Part shown: piece by piece, positions 2,780 through 10,473 of the stretch
Layout of the letters: every line of letters begins with the position of its first letter
Position numbering within the stretch: position 1 is the first letter of the stretch
DNA from: a virus
Taxonomy: Duplodnaviria > Heunggongvirae > Uroviricota > Caudoviricetes
Direction: 5' to 3' (one strand)
Virus record (IMG/VR): IMGVR_UViG_2703718818_000014
Location: 1 to 11,010 of that record
Length of the DNA: 11,010 nt
The notes under the pieces: model-generated
The model's database searches: none
Seen by the model: only the letters and a program-made list of their open reading frames with translations
What the model was told of the DNA's origin: nothing
Position numbers and translations under genes: made by a program

Positions 2780-2971
2780 TTATCCTTTGGGTTCTATACC
2801 GCGCCGCTTTAGTTCAGTGCGCCCCAACTCTTTAAGCCAGTTGGCTAGGCTTATGCCGTCGCTCTGTGCTTCTTTATCGAATTGCTCTTTTAGCTCTGGA
2901 GAAATTCGCATTCTGAATTGTGGGGATTGCCCGTCCCCTTTAGGGCTTTTATCGCGTTTGATTGTTGACAA
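2780..2971 (-). CDS. Small ribbon-helix-helix (Arc/MetJ-like) DNA-binding protein, paralogue 2 (63 aa from TTG 2971; alternative ATG at 2911 gives 43 aa)
   Basis: Translation ...STIKRDKSPKGDGQSPQFRMRISPELKEQFDKEAQSDGISLANWLKELGRTELKRRGIEPKG, collinear with paralogue 1 including N-terminal (M)ST.K. AGGTGA lies 4 nt upstream of the TTG. Confidence 0.45.
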   Translation of the reverse strand: MSTIKRDKSPKGDGQSPQFRMRISPELKEQFDKEAQSDGISLANWLKELGRTELKRRGIEPKG

Positions 2972-2972
2972 G

Positions 2973-3013
2973 TGGTCACCTATTGAATTAGCCTTTCTAT
3001 TGTTAGGTGACCA
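2973..3013. promoter_or_regulatory. 10-bp inverted repeat, candidate operator (TGGTCACCTA ... TAGGTGACCA)
   Basis: Perfect 10-bp inverted repeat at 2973-2982 and 3004-3013 between the RHH paralogue 2 start and stem-loop B. The analogous position in module A has a different inverted repeat (TGTAATGT 2291-2298 / ACATTACA 2315-2322). Confidence 0.35.
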
Positions 3014-3042
3014 CCTTAACACAAGAGCACTTAAAAAAGCAA

Positions 3043-3075
3043 AGCCCCGCAAGTGTCATTACCACTCGCAGGGCT
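3043..3075. other. Conserved stem-loop B (paralogue of stem-loop A)
   Basis: AGCCC-c-GCAAGTG / CACTCGC-a-GGGCT. Same flanking sequence as stem-loop A; on the minus strand followed by TTTGCTTTTTT. Confidence 0.4.
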
Positions 3076-3105
3076 TCTAACCAACAACGTAAACTAGGAG
3101 CCGTT

Positions 3106-3663
3106 ATGGTTGCTGTAAATCATATACCACACCTTGTACACACACAAACGGCCTTTGTGTGGCGTTTTCTGGCCCTGAATATCGGAGAAAAAAACCAGTT
3201 GATCGCCAGTGTCGAAAATAGCTATGATTCCCGCGCACCTCATAAAACGGGTGCCGGGATTGGCGTCCTGGGCAAAACTGAAGCGCATAACACGCGCCCC
3301 GCGTGTTTTTTTGTGCCGCATAGTCACACCTTATCAATGGTGGGCTGTACGGGGGCGGAGCAATCCGCGCCGGTTTCTTCAGTGTCCGGTTACGCCAACC
3401 CTGTACAGTCCGCCACCAGCGAAATTGGCGTTTCCGGTGGCGGTTATCTTAACCACACTGAGGAGGCTGCCAACATGGCTACTATCCCTACCCTTGTACA
3501 TTCTCAAACCGCCTTTCTCTGGCGCTTTATCATCTTTGGCGCGTCAGAACATCAAATCATCCACGTAACCGCCTGGACGGAACGCGAAGCGCGTAACCGT
3601 TGCCCGTCAGGTTGTGTTGCTGTATTTGCCGCTCGTATTCGTCAGGGGTCACATCATGCGTAA
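3106..3663 (+). CDS. Tandem small-protein paralogue units B1 and B2 in one open frame (possible Icd-like proteins); B2 may initiate independently at 3475
   Basis: ATG 3106 with AGGAG 5 nt upstream. An internal ATG at 3475 has GAGGAGG 9 nt upstream and encodes MATIPTLVHSQTAFLWRFIIFGASEHQIIHVTAWTEREARNRCPSGCVAVFAARIRQG. B1 begins MVAVNHIPHLVHTQTAFVWRF..., and the frame stays open from 3106 to 3663 across an internal terminator-like hairpin. Family assignment is from memory of the motif only. Confidence 0.4.
   Translation: MVAVNHIPHLVHTQTAFVWRFLALNIGEKNQLIASVENSYDSRAPHKTGAGIGVLGKTEAHNTRPACFFVPHSHTLSMVGCTGAEQSAPVSSVSGYANPVQSATSEIGVSGGGYLNHTEEAANMATIPTLVHSQTAFLWRFIIFGASEHQIIHVTAWTEREARNRCPSGCVAVFAARIRQGSHHA
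3289..3312 (+). terminator. Intrinsic terminator / attenuator inside the B1-B2 leader
   Basis: Stem AACACGCG / CGCGTGTT with a short loop, followed by a T run (GTTTTTTTG). Confidence 0.5.
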
Positions 3664-3949
3664 AAACCGCTTGCAAAAAATTATCACGGGGCTGTATGCT
3701 TCCCCCGTCGCCCACATGGCGACCGGGTTTGACAGCCTGAATAAATTGGCGGACAGCCGCCCATATCCGATAAGCGGTTTTTTTGTGTCCGTAAACCTAC
3801 CCATACCCGCATTATGGCGGGGCGTAACGGGGGAGCCTTTGCGCTCGCTGGTTTCCCAATTTGCCAGTCTGTCAACCCTGTTACGTCTCGCCACCATGTT
3901 TGACAGCGTAGTAGCGAGACTCCTTAACATTAAATTGGGAGCCTTTCAC

Positions 3950-4123
3950 ATGGCTGTATCCGCACGCCCTTACTTTGTCTGGCGCTTTATGCAGTGCCAC
4001 CACAGCAACATTGATGTATTCACCGTTACCGCAGCCACTGAACGCGAAGCCCGCGCCCAGCTGCCGCACGCACATCTGATTCTTGTCGCCCGTATTCGTC
4101 AGGGGAAAACCTATGCACAATAA
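3950..4123 (+). CDS. Small-protein paralogue unit B3 (57 aa; possible Icd-like); frame is open upstream to ATG 3656
   Basis: ATG 3950 with GGGAG 8 nt upstream; MAVSARPYFVWRFMQCHHSNIDVFTVTAATEREARAQLPHAHLILVARIRQGKTYAQ shares F.WRF, TEREAR and ARIRQG with unit B2. The upstream in-frame extension (3656-3949) is homologous to the B1-B2 leader at nucleotide level but in a different reading frame, which argues it is non-coding. Confidence 0.45.
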   Translation: MAVSARPYFVWRFMQCHHSNIDVFTVTAATEREARAQLPHAHLILVARIRQGKTYAQ

Positions 4124-4373
4124 AACCACACCGGACGCAGCAGCCGCCGCGCTCACTACGCTGATGCATGCGCTGATTGATATTTCTGTTATTGCTGACA
4201 GGGCGCATAAGCACGCCACCAGTGAAACAGAATATGCTGGGGCTTTCGTTCCTCATTCGCTGGCGGTTATGCAACTTAGTGCGGATATGGCGCTGAATGA
4301 GGCCAAAGCCATCCTGATTGCTGATTGTGAAAATGGGGGGGGGTTATGCGTGATGATCGTTTTAATTCCCTGA
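4113..4373 (+). CDS. Hypothetical small protein (86 aa)
   Basis: First ATG of the frame, overlapping the stop of unit B3; first gene of a tightly packed run of small ORFs leading into the primase gene. Contains a G9 homopolymer near its 3' end. Confidence 0.4.
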   Translation: MHNKTTPDAAAAALTTLMHALIDISVIADRAHKHATSETEYAGAFVPHSLAVMQLSADMALNEAKAILIADCENGGGLCVMIVLIP

Positions 4374-4567
4374 AACAGGAATTTTCCGGCGTTCCTGATG
4401 ATGCGGTTGATGCGCTTTCGTTAATATCTGAAATTATGCGGGTGGCTTTTTTCTTTCTTTGCACTGATGAGCACAGAGATACAGGGCTAAATATTCTTGA
4501 TATTGCCGCTAACTATGCCGATTTCGTGACAGAAGCTGTTTTAAGAAAAACAACGGACGGGGATTAA
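4346..4567 (+). CDS. Hypothetical small protein (73 aa)
   Basis: ATG 4346 immediately after the G9 run, which doubles as its Shine-Dalgarno; overlaps the preceding ORF by 28 nt. Confidence 0.45.
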   Translation: MRDDRFNSLKQEFSGVPDDAVDALSLISEIMRVAFFFLCTDEHRDTGLNILDIAANYADFVTEAVLRKTTDGD

Positions 4568-4568
4568 T

Positions 4569-4802
4569 ATGCGTGATATTTATCTTGAAACAATAGACCG
4601 CGCATTTCTTGCACTTTCTCACAGTGAAAACATGCTGGAAATATTGCGCATATGGCTTGAAACACTTGGCGACAATGAACGCGACAAACAAAAATCAAGA
4701 ATTGCCACGGCATTAATAACGCTTCTTGAGCCTGTAATAATGGAACTGCAAGAAATAGATCTATTGCACGACAGATATAAAGAACAGCACACCGGAGAAT
4801 AA
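4569..4802 (+). CDS. Hypothetical small protein (77 aa)
   Basis: ATG 2 nt after the previous stop, preceded by GGACGGGGA; acidic helical-looking sequence. Confidence 0.5.
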   Translation: MRDIYLETIDRAFLALSHSENMLEILRIWLETLGDNERDKQKSRIATALITLLEPVIMELQEIDLLHDRYKEQHTGE

Positions 4803-4807
4803 AAATA

Positions 4808-5107
4808 ATGAAACTTAAATATTCTGGCTTAACTGCCAGTGGCAACACTCACCCTAAATTTACGCGCGGTGATATTTACCGCGACCAGTACGGCGGCACG
4901 GTAATGATTAAGGGCGTGGAAGAACGGCGTGTAACCTACCGCCGTGAAGGTTACGAATATGATTGCGTGATGCCTGTTTATCAGTTCCGGCGTGATTTTT
5001 CTCTGGTACAGACCGCGCCGCATAACGTGCCCACCAGCAACGCCAGGGCACGGGCAAACATCCAGAAGCTGAAAACCATGATTAACGGATTCAGGGGTAA
5101 AAAATGA
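4808..5107 (+). CDS. Hypothetical small protein (99 aa), translationally coupled to the primase gene
   Basis: ATG 4808 with GGAGA upstream; its stop overlaps the primase start in an ATGA arrangement. Resembles from memory small conserved proteins found beside primase genes in P4-like islands (unverified). Confidence 0.5.
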   Translation: MKLKYSGLTASGNTHPKFTRGDIYRDQYGGTVMIKGVEERRVTYRREGYEYDCVMPVYQFRRDFSLVQTAPHNVPTSNARARANIQKLKTMINGFRGKK

Positions 5108-6858
5108 AACTGGCACCGAACGTAAAACAGCAGTCACGCGGCATAAAACACAAAGGAACAGAAGTCATTATTTTTGCGGGTAGTGATGCCTGGGCACACG
5201 CGAAACAATGGCAGGAACATGATGCGCGTATGGCCGGAGATAATGAGCCTCCTGTGTGGCTTGGGGAGCAGCAGTTATCAGAGCTGGATAAGCTGCAAAT
5301 TGTGCCGGAAGGCAGAAAATCCGTGCGCATATTCAGGGCCGGATATCTTGCGCCAGTAATGATAAAGGCGATTGGCCAGAAGCTGGCGGCGGCAGGCGTA
5401 CAGGATGCAAATTTTTACCCTGATGGTATGCACGGTCAGAAGGTGGAGAACTGGCGCGAATATCTGGCCCGTGAGCGCCAGAATCTTTCTGATGGTCTGG
5501 TCATTGAGCTTCCGGTAAAGCAAAAGGCGCAACTTTCGCAGATGGCGGACAGTGAGCGCGCGCAGCTGCTTGCCGATCGCTTTGATGGCGTTTGCGTACA
5601 TCCTGAAAGTGAAATCGTTCACGTATGGCGCGGCGGGGTATGGTGTCCGGTCAGCACAATGGAGCTTAGCCGCGAAATGGTGGCGATCTATTCAGAGCAC
5701 AGGGCCACTTTCAGCAAGCGCGTAATCAATAACGCCGTGGAAGCGTTAAAAGTTATTGCCGAACCAATGGGCGAGCCGTCCGGCGATTTGCTGCCGTTCG
5801 CCAATGGTGCGCTTGACCTGAAAACGGGGGAATTTTCCCCGCACACGCCGGAGAACTGGATCACCACGCACAACGGCATTGAGTACACGCCACCAGCACC
5901 AGGGGAGAACATCCGCGATAACGCGCCAAACTTTCATAAATGGCTTGAGCACGCAGCCGGAAAAGACCCGCGCAAGATGATGCGTATATGTGCCGCGCTG
6001 TACATGATTATGGCGAACCGGTACGACTGGCAGATGTTTATTGAGGCCACCGGAGACGGCGGGAGCGGTAAAAGTACATTCACGCACATAGCCAGCCTTC
6101 TGGCAGGGAAACAGAACACGGTAAGCGCTGAAATGACGTCGCTTGATGATGCTGGTGGACGTGCGCAGGTTGTCGGGAGTCGTCTTATCGTCCTGGCTGA
6201 CCAGCCGAAATATACAGGCGAAGGAACGGGCATCAAGAAAATCACGGGCGGTGACCCCGTGGAAATTAACCCGAAATACGAAAAGCGTTTCACGGCTGTA
6301 ATCAGGGCGGTGGTGCTGGCGACCAACAATAACCCGATGATATTCACCGAACGGGCCGGAGGTGTGGCACGTCGTCGCGTGATTTTCCGTTTCGACAATA
6401 TCGTCAGTGAGGCCGAAAAAGACAGGGAGCTACCGGAAAAGATTGCGGCTGAAATCCCTGTCATTATCCGCCGATTGCTGGCGAACTTTACCGACCCTGA
6501 GAAGGCACGGGCTTTACTACTGGAACAGCGTGACGGTGATGAAGCACTGGCAATAAAGCAACAGACGGATCCGGTTATTGAGTTTTGCCAGTTCCTGAAT
6601 TTTCTGGAGGAAGCACGCGGCCTGATGATGGGCGGCGGTGGCGATTCAGTGAAGTACACGACCAGAAACAGCCTTTACCGCGTCTATCTGGCGTTTATGG
6701 CGTACGCAGGCAGGAGCAAACCGCTAAACGTAAATGACTTTGGCAAGGCTATGAAGCCAGCCGCGAAAGTTTACGGACATGAATATATTACGCGGAAAGT
6801 TAAAGGAGTAACGCAGACTAACGCAATAACAACAGACGATTGCGACGCGTTTTTATAA
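5104..6858 (+). CDS. Replication protein: P4-alpha-family primase/helicase C-terminal-type P-loop NTPase (SF3/D5-like), 584 aa
   Basis: Walker A GDGGSGKST, Walker B-like RLIVLADQP and SF3 motif C VVLATNNNP in the C-terminal half; sits directly upstream of an iteron array. Confidence 0.85.
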   Translation: MKLAPNVKQQSRGIKHKGTEVIIFAGSDAWAHAKQWQEHDARMAGDNEPPVWLGEQQLSELDKLQIVPEGRKSVRIFRAGYLAPVMIKAIGQKLAAAGVQDANFYPDGMHGQKVENWREYLARERQNLSDGLVIELPVKQKAQLSQMADSERAQLLADRFDGVCVHPESEIVHVWRGGVWCPVSTMELSREMVAIYSEHRATFSKRVINNAVEALKVIAEPMGEPSGDLLPFANGALDLKTGEFSPHTPENWITTHNGIEYTPPAPGENIRDNAPNFHKWLEHAAGKDPRKMMRICAALYMIMANRYDWQMFIEATGDGGSGKSTFTHIASLLAGKQNTVSAEMTSLDDAGGRAQVVGSRLIVLADQPKYTGEGTGIKKITGGDPVEINPKYEKRFTAVIRAVVLATNNNPMIFTERAGGVARRRVIFRFDNIVSEAEKDRELPEKIAAEIPVIIRRLLANFTDPEKARALLLEQRDGDEALAIKQQTDPVIEFCQFLNFLEEARGLMMGGGGDSVKYTTRNSLYRVYLAFMAYAGRSKPLNVNDFGKAMKPAAKVYGHEYITRKVKGVTQTNAITTDDCDAFL

Positions 6859-8048: not shown

Positions 8049-8255
8049 ATGGCTGAAGAGAAAAAAGGCGGTGTTTCGGTGTACATAAGCCCCGAAATCG
8101 TGGAGGTGCTCAAGCAGCGCCACAAAAAAAACTATGAGGCTGGCGTAGCGGCTGGACTGGATCCGCTGATGACGCCGGAGCCGTCGATAGGTTCACTTGT
8201 GCGCTCTTATTTACTTGCGGCGCTTGGGATGCATAAAAATTATGGGGGTGAATAA
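8049..8255 (+). CDS. Hypothetical protein (68 aa), first gene of the capsid operon
   Basis: ATG 8049 with AGAGGA upstream; its stop overlaps the capsid gene start (TAATG). No family recognised. Confidence 0.5.
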   Translation: MAEEKKGGVSVYISPEIVEVLKQRHKKNYEAGVAAGLDPLMTPEPSIGSLVRSYLLAALGMHKNYGGE

Positions 8256-9310
8256 TGACAGGCAAAGCAACGGCACTTAACACTAACCAGCTTTTCATGT
8301 ACCTGAATCGCGGGGATATTGCGGATTTTAAATTCAGCCCTCTGTTTACTACGCTGTTTTTCCCGAACGTGGCGACATTCAGCACGCAAAACATCATGCT
8401 GGACACCCTGGACATTGAAGAGGTTACGATGTCGGCGTTTTGTTCGCCTATGGTGGGTAGTCAGGTCCAGCGCGATAAAGGGTACGAAACCAGCACGATT
8501 AAACCTGGATACATGAAGCCGAAGCACGAAATCGATCCAACGAAAACCATCATGCGCATGGCCGGAGAAGATCCGGCACAGCTTAACGACCCTACCTATC
8601 GCCGTATGCGCCTGATTACTGGCAATATGCGCCGCCAGGTAAACGCCATAAAAGCGCGCGTGGAATGGCTGGCGGTAAATGCGGTAACGACCGGAAAAAA
8701 CATCATTGAGGGCGAAGGCATAGAACGCTATGAAATCGACTGGAAGATACCGGAAAAAAACATCATAGAGCAGGCCGACGGTAAAAAATGGTCTGAGCAG
8801 GATAAAGACATACACGACCCAATATATGACATTGAACTATACGCAGATCAGGCAGGTTGCCCCGCCAACGTCATGATTATGGGCGTTGATGTATGGCGCA
8901 TGTTACGCAGCTTTAAAAAATTCCGTGAACTGTACGATCTCTCCCGTGGTTCAGAATCCGCCGCAGAGCTGGCATGTAAAAACCTGGGCGAAGTGGTGAG
9001 CTTTAAAGGCTATCTTGGTGATCTGGCCCTTATCGTCTATTCCGGCAAATACACTGACAGCGACGGCACAGAAAAATATTTCCTTGAGCCTGATTTGCTG
9101 GTCCTGGGCAACACCAACAATAAAGGGCTGGTGGCCTATGGTGCGATTATGGAACAGGAAGCGGTAAGAACGGGCGCAACGCAAAACATGTTTTACCCGA
9201 AAAACTGGATTGAAGACGGCGATCCGGCGATTGAGTACGTGCAGACACACAGCGCACCGCAGCCTGTTCCGGCAGATATTCGAAAATTTGTTACCGTCAA
9301 AATTGGTTAA
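8255..9310 (+). CDS. Major capsid protein, phage lambda gpE family (351 aa)
   Basis: Collinear with lambda gpE as I remember it: FKFSPLFTTLFF vs FKFDPLFLRLFF; PGYMKPKHEIDPTKTIMR vs PGYVKPKHEVNPQMTLRR; DPTYRRMRLITGNMR vs DPAYRRRRIIMQNMR; C-terminal YPKNWIEDGDPAIEY vs YPKNWVTTGDPAREF. Length close to gpE (341 aa). Confidence 0.9.
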   Translation: MTGKATALNTNQLFMYLNRGDIADFKFSPLFTTLFFPNVATFSTQNIMLDTLDIEEVTMSAFCSPMVGSQVQRDKGYETSTIKPGYMKPKHEIDPTKTIMRMAGEDPAQLNDPTYRRMRLITGNMRRQVNAIKARVEWLAVNAVTTGKNIIEGEGIERYEIDWKIPEKNIIEQADGKKWSEQDKDIHDPIYDIELYADQAGCPANVMIMGVDVWRMLRSFKKFRELYDLSRGSESAAELACKNLGEVVSFKGYLGDLALIVYSGKYTDSDGTEKYFLEPDLLVLGNTNNKGLVAYGAIMEQEAVRTGATQNMFYPKNWIEDGDPAIEYVQTHSAPQPVPADIRKFVTVKIG

Positions 9311-9321
9311 CGGTGGATTCT

Positions 9322-9657
9322 ATGAACACTCCATACATTGAGTTATTTGCAGGCAGTCAGCAGGTATCAACGACACTGGTACATTTTGCCGCTGATGCTG
9401 GCGTTATTCAGGAATTTACCCCGCTGATGCTGGCGGACAATGGCGAGTTTAAGCCGTGGGATGGTCAGGAATCTGGCAAGGCTGTTTATCTGACCTCGTA
9501 CCCCGTTGACACGTCGACGCAGAAATCAGCACAGTGCTATAAGACGGGGATATTTAATATCGCCGCCGTTAACTGGCCTGAGAGCGTCGACACCGATGCG
9601 AAAAAATGCGCCGCCTTTGCGGGTTCTGGCGTATCCGTTCAGCCGCTGGCGCGATAA
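9322..9657 (+). CDS. Head decoration protein, phage lambda gpD family (about 111 aa; alternative GTG start at 9313)
   Basis: TPLMLADNGEFKPWDG vs lambda gpD TPLMLDTSSRKLVAWDG; YKTGIFNIAAVNWPESVDTDAKKCAAFAGSGVSV vs [35 protein letters not shown]. Sits immediately after the capsid gene. Confidence 0.85.
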   Translation: MNTPYIELFAGSQQVSTTLVHFAADAGVIQEFTPLMLADNGEFKPWDGQESGKAVYLTSYPVDTSTQKSAQCYKTGIFNIAAVNWPESVDTDAKKCAAFAGSGVSVQPLAR

Positions 9658-9930: not shown

Positions 9931-10473
9931 ATGAAATCGCACCTGATGAACAAAAAAAACATGGCGAAAAGCTGCCGTGTAAGTGCGACAGCGTTCGACA
10001 AGTGGGGAGTGACTCCCGTTGAACGTAAAGGCCGTGAGGCGTTTTATGATGTTGCCAGCGTGATAGACAATAGGGTTAACAATGCAATTAGCCAGCTTAC
10101 AAACGACAAAGGCGATATTGATGATGCTGAACTCTTACGAGTCAGGATCAGATTACTGACAGCACAGGCGGAGGCGCAGGAACTTAAAAACGAGCGCGAT
10201 CGCGGTGACGTGATTGATACTGAGTTTTGCCTGTACGCGCTTTCAAAGCTGGCGAGTCAGATTTCATCAATCATGGACAGCCTCCCGCTTAATATGCAAA
10301 GGAGCTTCCCACAGATTCCCCCCGCCATGCTGGACAGGCTTAAAAGGGAAGTGGTTAAAGCCTGTAATGGCAGTGCCAGAGTTGCCGACAACCTCCCACA
10401 GATACTGGCTGATTACTTGAAAGAAACAACCGGAAACGTACCGGAAAAGTTGCTACAGAAGAAAGGCGAGTAA
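9931..10473 (+). CDS. Terminase small subunit, lambda gpNu1 family (180 aa; homologous start may be ATG 9946)
   Basis: C-terminal two-thirds collinear with lambda Nu1: LTAQAEAQELKNERDRGDVIDTEFCLYALSKLASQISSIMDSLPLNMQRSFP vs LTRAQADAQELKNARDSAEVVETAFCTFVLSRIAGEIASILDGLPLSVQRRFP. The N-terminal DNA-binding region is recognisably related but far more divergent. No obvious Shine-Dalgarno at either start. Confidence 0.88.
   Translation: MKSHLMNKKNMAKSCRVSATAFDKWGVTPVERKGREAFYDVASVIDNRVNNAISQLTNDKGDIDDAELLRVRIRLLTAQAEAQELKNERDRGDVIDTEFCLYALSKLASQISSIMDSLPLNMQRSFPQIPPAMLDRLKREVVKACNGSARVADNLPQILADYLKETTGNVPEKLLQKKGE

Follow-up and report, generated by a model that had tools for sequence, protein, structure and literature searches.

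The small-gene cluster and its element

IMG/VR virus record IMGVR_UViG_2703718818_000014 (Caudoviricetes) supplied the 11,010 nt stretch of DNA analysed here, which we call the window and whose positions serve as coordinates throughout. Our subject is a cluster of four small open reading frames (ORFs) on its plus strand, ORF1 (4113-4373; 86 amino acids (aa), ATG start), ORF2 (4346-4567; 73 aa), ORF3 (4569-4802; 77 aa) and ORF4 (4808-5107; 99 aa), which lead into a replicase gene (5104-6858, plus strand; 584 aa). The cluster is probably the middle of the early (replication) operon of a phage-inducible chromosomal island (PICI) of the EcCICFT073/Nissle type, composed of a bipartite gene split by a poly-G tract and of a pair formed by ORF3 and the gene for the regulator RgdR, and lying downstream of a switch built on C4 antisense RNA.

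A sequence-only reading of the window had described four overlapping or near-abutting ORFs of 73-99 aa with an ATGA overlap at 5104, and its coordinates and junctions are confirmed in the sequence. The stop codon of the preceding Icd-like ORF (TAA, 4121-4123) falls within the first codons of ORF1, at the ORF1 start. ORF1 and ORF2 overlap by 28 nt, ORF2 and ORF3 are separated by 1 nt and ORF3 and ORF4 by 5 nt, and the ORF4 stop and the replicase start share the ATGA at 5104. Shine-Dalgarno (SD)-like pairing was found at every start in the cluster, at -6.2 to -6.6 kcal/mol and, for ORF2, at -11.1 kcal/mol, against a mean of -2.7 for the background of the window. The ATGA junction between ORF4 and the replicase was present in all 78 related loci scored, and there was no terminator-like site on the plus strand between about 3310 and 5460. 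The tight coupling of the ORFs into the replicase gene that the earlier reading had proposed is therefore well founded.

The four frames are evidently real genes and not chance frames, because all of them match PHROG families (E = 1e-28 to 1e-41) and one also a Pfam family, because dN/dS (the ratio of nonsynonymous to synonymous substitution rates) is 0.21-0.36 in their plus-strand frames, and because public contigs with the exact products encoded in the window number from 345 to at least 1,000. Conservation across related elements had been named as a check on the cluster, and its DNA was found in about 1,400 of 5,426 complete Escherichia coli genomes. The ORFs appear to represent three gene families and not four, since ORF1 and ORF2 match the two halves of PHROG 2512; thus the four frames described earlier are real, but ORF1 and ORF2 are not separate genes, being halves of one family split by a run of nine G residues (G9). 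The ORF1 half, the ORF2 half, ORF3 and ORF4 showed no paralogy among themselves (hhalign probabilities all below 1%). A blastn search of phage GenBank records gave no match to the cluster, and a protein-pattern scan of one genome per species returned 30 pattern matches, none of which was confirmed. Between positions 3900 and 5300, a search for repeats found short chance-level matches only, and no iterons.

The E. coli Nissle 1917 island that adjoins tRNA-Pro, like that of related strains, can be aligned to 80% of the window with an identity of 93.5%, and has the same gene order. The window encodes an integrase, AlpA, two minus-strand ribbon-helix-helix (RHH) proteins of the YlcI/YnfO type, Icd-like ORFs, the small-ORF cluster, the replicase, a single-stranded DNA-binding protein, a capsid protein of the lambda E type, a decoration protein and a small terminase subunit (TerS). 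The features given for Gram-negative PICIs (PMC6092414) are all found here, namely co-oriented int, alpA and pri-rep genes, rgdR, a size of about 10-12 kb and packaging genes located downstream; rgdR is encoded in every E. coli PICI analysed in that study. We accordingly class the element, by gene content and homology, as a Gram-negative PICI of the EcCICFT073/Nissle 1917 type. Its description as a satellite was correct, as was the placement of the cluster between the replication gene and an immunity region, made up here of C4 RNAs and Icd-like ORFs.

ORF1 and ORF2 as halves of PHROG 2512

Of the 154 positions in the PHROG 2512 profile, ORF1 covers 1-77 (E = 1.1e-33; phrog_5146 was also matched) and ORF2 covers 78-146 (E = 7e-28; phrog_24341 at E = 4e-41). 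Both halves are present, collinear and adjacent in the window, where the G9 tract shifts the frame so that no single uninterrupted PHROG 2512 frame exists. ORF1 and ORF2 are thus best regarded as the N- and C-terminal halves of one family, and not as independent genes. ORF1 consists of the N-terminal half (residues 1-77) and a nine-codon out-of-frame tail, LCVMIVLIP, created by the tract. This exact 86-aa product was found on at least 1,000 contigs and the exact ORF2 product on 582.

Among the top 120 homologues of the fused form, which extend down to 79% identity, all 120 are 148-161 aa long, and the halves are joined by ENGGVM (88 proteins), ENGGGVM (23) or ENGGGM (6). The methionine at the junction, which is the ORF2 start, is kept internally in at least 118 of them. 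Across loci, the N half is always intact and, with few exceptions, ORF2 has 73 or 77 aa whatever the tract length. Selection on the two halves is similar in both arrangements, with dN/dS of 0.21 in fused and 0.22 in split alleles for the N half, and of 0.36 and 0.34, respectively, for the C half. When 1.84 billion representative proteins were searched exhaustively with the profile, the PHROG 2512 family was found in only 62 clusters. Many of these are stand-alone N halves (profile positions 1-77), some of them ending without any G-run; stand-alone C halves, in members that share less than 50% identity, have their first residue exactly at position 78 of the profile; and a diverged fused form is joined by NAPGIM, again without a G-run. 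Fused and split forms of PHROG 2512 therefore both appear to be functionally acceptable.

The AlphaFold2 model of fused ORF1/2 is of low confidence (predicted local distance difference test (pLDDT) score 53) and is usable for secondary structure only. Residues 9-73 form a long helical hairpin and residues 74-79, at the tract-encoded Gly-Gly, a disordered linker, after which come three helices. A Foldseek search of the PDB with this model returned generic helical bundles only (best E = 0.83), and sequence searches of the PDB with ORF4 and with fused ORF1/2 gave chance hits only (E at least 0.5).

In the O157 OI-51 island (L003, 4402-4778), the slot between the Icd-like ORF and ORF3 is occupied by unrelated ORFs of 61 and 63 aa that lack Pfam hits. 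To judge from this comparison, the slot looks like a variable, replaceable cargo position. We found no paper that describes the G tract or gives ORF1/2 or ORF3 a function. The papers on EcCIMP1 and on helper-embedded PICIs (PMC11773190, PMC10111431) contain nothing on these genes, and a search for poly-G tracts or phase variation in PICIs likewise found none. One practical consequence concerns annotation, as thousands of E. coli genomes list PHROG 2512 products inconsistently as one or two hypothetical proteins by G-run length only.

Length polymorphism of the poly-G tract

The G9 tract (4335-4343, plus strand) lies at the junction of the PHROG 2512 halves, encodes the Gly-Gly(-Gly) linker and is SD-like for ORF2, whose ATG follows 2 nt past it. 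No other run of G or C in the window exceeds 6. The anti-SD pairing of -11.1 kcal/mol that it offers to ORF2, the strongest in the cluster, is the same at G7-G10. When the tract was changed in silico, G7 gave a protein of 154 aa and G10 one of 155 aa; G8 and G9 split the gene. Natural alleles follow the same rule. Island L002 has G7 and a single 154-aa coding sequence (CDS). In L001, an island in NZ_AP042585.1, and in Nissle 1917 the tract is G8 and the pair is annotated as two CDSs (hypothetical proteins in the Nissle strain) with an 8-nt ATG/TGA overlap, whereas the G9 of the window gives the 28-nt overlap and the 9-aa tail. Gene order in the EcCICFT073/Nissle 1917 early operon (int, alpA, Icd-like ORF, small ORFs, rgdR, pri) is otherwise that of the window.

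We took a census of the tract at 92 loci, drawn from the window, two E. coli genomes and IMG/VR contigs with a DNA pattern anchored on both flanks. Lengths of 8 (40 loci, 5 of them interrupted), 7 (24), 9 (17), 10 (4), 11 (3) and 12 (3) were recorded. The tract was in frame at 28 of the 92 loci (30%), a share no different from one third (p = 0.58). A tree built from the coding flanks (73 unique sequences) requires at least 35 changes of tract length, and 35.7 are expected after shuffling; because the two are equal, the tract carries no phylogenetic signal. Its length changes at least 13 times faster than the average site. Six pairs of loci with identical 425-nt flanks differ in tract length, as do three pairs with at most 6 differences per 1,200 nt of flank. 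Within each cluster of loci with identical flanks (4, 3 and 2 members) the tract length is uniform, and a single length is common to 11 Nissle-like genomes that have identical scores; these clonal groups argue against very high switching rates. All frame states were found with every replicase type and every ORF2 variant, and tract frame showed no association with replicase type or ORF2 length.

Exact probes for G7, G8, G9 and G10 each match complete genomes at 100% identity, where the annotation under the match is one CDS at G7 and G10 and two at G8. The numbers of matches at 99% identity or more (596, 418, 406 and 259 of 889 records) are bounds only, inflated because about 239 alignments are truncated and because some genomes hold several islands.

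Synonymous interruptions of the tract are present in 4 of the 73 unique sequences, against a mean minor-allele fraction of 0.20 at nearby four-fold degenerate sites. Nine IMG/VR loci (within L004-L092) have interrupted tracts, of the forms GGGGGTGG (three loci), GGGGTGGG (two), GGGGAGGGGGGG (three) and GGGGGGGGTGG (one). All nine are out of frame, which locks these alleles into the split form. The census sample contained no in-frame allele of the locked kind, and the junction ENGWVM among the fused proteins suggests that one exists.

ORF4, a predicted RgdR

ORF4 matches Pfam PF13973 (DUF4222) over the whole profile (positions 1-53 of 53), with 85.7 bits against a cut-off of 27 (E = 1.6e-24). 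It is identical at 80 of 99 residues (81%) to the annotated RgdR WP_000770148.1 of an O157:H7 genome and at 93 of 99 (94%) to C1493 of strain CFT073, and its orthology to ECs1581 extends over the full 99 aa. R20-G21-D22 and K35 are kept, in the order KFT-R20-G21-D22-IYRDQYGGTVMI-K35. By homology, we identify ORF4 as RgdR (DUF4222). The sequence-only reading had found no motif that it could assign with confidence in any of the four ORFs, and in the case of ORF4 this has to be revised. RgdR (ECs1581) activates LEE1 of the enterocyte effacement locus (LEE) and type III secretion and represses motility, and C1493 has the same activities; R20 of the RGD motif and K35 are functionally important, DNA binding is weak and non-specific, and orthologues have been reported with more than 77% homology (PMC3378721). 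Like ECs1581 of O157:H7 OI-51/CP-933C and C1493 of CFT073, ORF4 has 99 aa, the key residues and a position directly upstream of the island's replicase, and we see no structural difference from them.

The AlphaFold2 model of ORF4 (mean pLDDT 74, core 87-90) has a five-stranded small beta-barrel (residues 21-66) and a basic helix (77-96). Foldseek matched it to barrels of the KOW/SH3/PWWP type in the PDB (E at least 0.02) and to uncharacterised phage or DUF1653 proteins (E at least 2e-4); at the level of a model, such matches indicate fold class only and not function. Profile searches and structure prediction had been proposed as checks on all four ORFs. The former assigned ORF4 to DUF4222/RgdR, but matched ORF1/2 and ORF3 to PHROG families only, with no Pfam family, and the latter gave a fold class for ORF4 but secondary structure only for fused ORF1/2.

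ORF3, RgdR and the replicase N-terminal domain

ORF3 belongs to phrog_2196 (E = 1.1e-40) and has 530 homologues, all of them unnamed E. coli proteins, with dN/dS of 0.24-0.34. A relative lies directly upstream of rgdR in O157 OI-51 (hmmsearch E = 2.9e-9), though ORF1/2 is replaced there. On the other side of rgdR, the replicase of the window carries the domains D5_N, DUF5906, Pox_D5 and TIGR01613 ('primase, P4 family'; P4-family primase_Cterm). Its residues 1-130 match phrog_2850 and no Pfam family.

The replicases that follow rgdR are of three unrelated catalytic types, D5_N/P4 primase, RepA-helicase and DUF927. The N-terminal 125 aa of the window's replicase are 63% identical to the RepA-helicase type and its N-terminal 163 aa are 83% identical to the DUF927 type, with nothing similar beyond. 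This shared domain of the first 125-160 or so residues extends from 5104 to about 5590 on the plus strand (7052-7420 in L001 and 5312-5800 in L003). Because it is common to the different types, the recombination breakpoint between them lies inside the gene and not at the rgdR junction. The conserved unit, as predicted from these alignments, is ORF3 with RgdR and the replicase N-terminal domain; what can be exchanged is the ORF1/2 slot and the replicase's catalytic part. This conserved adjacency leads us to infer that RgdR, and perhaps ORF3, act with the replicase N-terminal domain in the satellite's own replication or its control.

The C4/Icd-like module upstream

Two copies of C4 antisense RNA (Rfam RF01695) precede the cluster, copy 1 at 3333-3420 and copy 2 at 3810-3898 on the plus strand, with scores of 77.6 and 74 bits against a cut-off of 45. 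An isrK RNA (3235-3311; 66 bits in Rfam) and a C4 a1/b1 target element (3694-3743; RF03163, 46.8 bits against a cut-off of 46.7) are also above their gathering scores. The Icd-like ORF (3950-4123, plus strand; ATG at 3950) matches NCBIfam NF033153, phage_ICD_like, at E = 9.7e-15. Nine nucleotides of C4 copy 2 are complementary to AAATTGGGA (3932-3940), which overlaps the SD sequence of the Icd-like ORF (GGGAG, about 3937-3941), and eight are complementary to 3701-3708, inside the a1/b1 element.

In the immI region of P1/P7, C4 RNA and Icd control the downstream ant, and expression of icd is apparently required for that of ant (PMC8201110). The window resembles immI in its C4 RNA, its a1/b1 target, its Icd-like ORF, the complementarity of C4 to the Icd-like SD sequence and the start/stop coupling downstream of icd. 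It differs in that no Ant homologue lies downstream, the chain consisting instead of ORF1/2, ORF3, rgdR and the replicase. The P1 mechanism is reportedly one of translational coupling and polarity (studies of Citron and Schuster in 1990 and Riedel et al. in 1993). Searches of ORF1-4 against Pfam, NCBIfam and PHROG found no Ant, KilA or Bro, the sole Pfam assignment being DUF4222.

The C4/Icd module is duplicated in the window, and the Nissle 1917 immunity region differs in this respect. Two mechanically called ORFs, 3007-3663 and 3614-4123, consist mostly of RNA genes and of two short Icd-like ORFs (3475-3663 and 3950-4123). On the minus strand, paralogous RHH-like genes at 2096-2275 and 2780-3052 share the C-terminal sequence RRGIEPKG, and relatives have counterparts that carry the annotation YlcI/YnfO family. 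Each gene is divergently oriented upstream of a C4/Icd-like module, an arrangement that suggests duplication of a regulatory cassette.

Discussion

The cluster is mostly known in kind, being a PICI early operon with rgdR. Modest new elements are the poly-G-driven fused/split polymorphism without frame preference, the conserved block of ORF3, RgdR and the replicase N-terminal domain, and the C4/Icd module directly upstream. The block, with its invariant ATGA, is not discussed in the RgdR papers. Start/stop coupling of rgdR and ORF3 to an N-terminal domain common to three unrelated replicase types provides a lead on the role of RgdR for the satellite, and the C4 antisense RNA/Icd-like module provides another on the gating of the replication operon.

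In the arrangement that we favour, PHROG 2512 would be a two-module, all-helical protein that is made as one chain of 154 or 155 aa, or as two chains, by poly-G length. At the G9 of the window the modules would be separate, with ORF2 translated from its own ATG by ribosomes arriving from ORF1, and with the G-run as its SD sequence. Both architectures would serve, and the G-run could toggle between them at little or no cost. The ORF3-RgdR pair is always followed by an ATGA-coupled replicase with the same N-terminal domain. The whole chain, from the Icd-like ORF through ORF1, ORF2, ORF3 and rgdR to the replicase, stands downstream of a C4 RNA of the P1/P7 type with its predicted target at the Icd-like ribosome-binding site, and start/stop coupling may pass the C4 switch on to the replicase through translational coupling and polarity. 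Because that target overlaps the ribosome-binding site upstream of the chain, transmission of the C4 gate to the replicase by the coupled chain is the most likely outcome, as judged from the anatomy of the operon. If RgdR and ORF3 do work with the replicase N-terminal domain, the effects of RgdR on the LEE and on motility would be a side effect on the host.

Several points weigh against this interpretation. We infer both the translation of ORF2 from its own start and the control of the operon by C4. The census pattern fixes 12 and 13 nt beside the tract, so that diverged relatives are under-sampled. If switching is fast, pairs of split alleles may have diverged while fused, and equal dN/dS is then no proof of split function; the identical-flank clusters that share a tract length indicate that switching is not extremely fast. 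The ORF1/2 model is of low confidence, and the RgdR matches in the PDB are at the level of fold class. The functional link between RgdR/ORF3 and the replicase N-terminal domain draws on conserved adjacency, and published RgdR phenotypes concern host genes and not PICI replication (PMC3378721).

Among the alternatives, that which survives best is the earlier suggestion that the ORFs sense, derepress or interfere with a helper phage, or at least that ORF1/2 and ORF3 are helper-interaction, derepression or interference factors in the manner of P4 epsilon or P1 Ant. For ORF1/2 and ORF3, where operon position is the argument, we consider such a role unlikely, if less so than the other alternatives below. 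The P4 left operon (cI, epsilon, ORF151, ORF106, alpha) does have three small co-oriented genes between an RNA-based immunity region and a primase-helicase, P1 ant follows c4-icd (PMC8201110), and a replaceable ORF1/2 slot, filled by unrelated ORFs in OI-51, would fit a helper- or host-specific accessory role. However, the searches brought up no evidence of helper sensing, derepression or interference. P4 epsilon, ORF151 and ORF106 are dissimilar to ORF1-4, and the 584-aa replicase has a different N-terminus from the 777-aa P4 protein. P4 epsilon is recognized as PF25738 'Derepression' at 170 bits and P4 ORF106 as DUF5375 at 211 bits. Homology of the cluster to epsilon, ORF151, ORF106, the cI-region ORF and ORF88 of P4 was rejected, all hmmsearch and hhalign comparisons being non-significant (the best, epsilon against the N half, at a probability of 5%). 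P4 ORF151 was also rejected as a relative of DUF4222, since their alignment spans 45 columns at a probability of 0.6% and Pfam gives no DUF4222 hit for ORF151. ORF1/2 and ORF3 have no Pfam or NCBIfam assignment, and neither ORF1-4 nor the fused form matched a PADLOC defence model at E up to 1. Furthermore, induction of E. coli PICIs has been ascribed to AlpA, and interference with packaging to Rpp, whose genes lie elsewhere in the element (PMC6092414, PMC6739421), and the known phenotypes of RgdR, a regulator of LEE and motility genes, concern the host (PMC3378721).

Somewhat less probable again is that the poly-G tract is a contingency (phase-variation) locus, in which reversible slippage switches ORF1/2 between fused and split, or on and off, perhaps with effects of coupling or polarity on rgdR and the replicase, so that cell subpopulations differ. 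The tract is a homopolymer of at least 7 nt in coding sequence with length polymorphism among close relatives, as in simple sequence repeat (SSR) contingency loci. It shares with the poly-G loci of Neisseria, Haemophilus and Campylobacter and with Klebsiella rmpA (bioRxiv 10.1101/2025.09.12.675794) a coding location, rapid length change and the occurrence of three frames in the population. A pure G7-G11 tract that varies among near-identical loci and between loci with identical flanks, the lack of phylogenetic signal and the fast rate of change all speak for a switch, as do the rarity of synonymous interruptions and the preservation of both halves, which is expected if lineages are regularly 'on'. 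In contrast to those loci, no frame is preferred here, the in-frame fraction being the neutral one third, and out of frame is not obviously 'off', since the downstream half has its own start, with strong SD-like pairing, at the tract. Clonal groups also keep one length, and distant relatives are stably split without a G-run. To our knowledge, SSR contingency loci are uncommon in E. coli.

A fuller version, which we regard as improbable, would have slippage between G7 and G10 act as a heritable, reversible switch that sets the number of chains, one or two, and also resets how ribosomes are handed on to rgdR and the replicase under the C4 gate, with clonal variation in inducibility, replication and RgdR-dependent regulation of virulence and motility. 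Were the G-run a real switch, satellite behaviour and RgdR-dependent virulence regulation would be linked to phase variation.

There is only a small chance that ORF1/ORF2 is a frameshift pseudogene of a 154-aa gene, with ORF2 as an untranslated remnant. Relative to G7 and G10 alleles, the window does have a frameshift that ends the first frame 9 codons past the tract. But about 70% of loci are out of frame and ORF2 is nonetheless intact in nearly all; the C half has a dN/dS of 0.34 among split alleles; exact split products occur on hundreds to at least 1,000 contigs; stand-alone C halves begin at the same methionine in relatives that are less than 50% identical; and the ORF2 ATG is conserved together with its strong SD-like run.

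Slightly less credible still is recoding, by which slippage of RNA polymerase or of ribosomes on the G-run would yield some full-length protein at all tract lengths and make the DNA frame largely irrelevant. Long homopolymer runs can support transcriptional slippage, and the absence of a frame preference would fit this too. In E. coli, however, slippage is documented mainly on runs of 9 or more A or T and not G, tracts locked out of frame by interruptions exist (GGGGGTGG, GGGGTGGG and GGGGAGGGGGGG, at 8 loci), and the split arrangement occurs in distant relatives that lack a run altogether.

Some platforms are prone to errors at homopolymers of 8 or more bases, but it is very improbable that tract-length differences are sequencing or assembly errors, which are an insufficient explanation because the exact 86-aa G9 product of the window is on at least 1,000 contigs; the G5, G8 and G9 products each occur on tens to hundreds, the exact G7-G10 probes match complete genomes with annotation that shifts consistently between one and two CDSs, and identical-flank clusters agree on tract length.

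Other features of the window and of related islands

Upstream of the immunity region, the integrase gene occupies 1-1242 and the AlpA gene 1739-1945. Downstream of the replicase lie genes for a capsid protein of the lambda gpE type (8255-9310), a head decoration protein (9313-9657) and TerS (9931-10473), so named in the Nissle 1917 counterpart. Islands L002 and L003 have HK97-type capsid, protease and portal genes in place of this packaging set. From the HK97-type genes of these islands and the lambda-type genes of the window, it follows that packaging modules have been exchanged and the core of ORF3, rgdR and the replicase N-terminal domain kept.

The closest relative of the cluster is carried by L001, where the island is situated inside a prophage gene for the terminase large subunit. 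Partial terminase CDSs flank it on both sides (1009-2013 and 12775-13075), and a fusion gene of ClpP protease and major capsid protein is present. The L001 island belongs with the helper-embedded PICIs that PMC10111431 describes.

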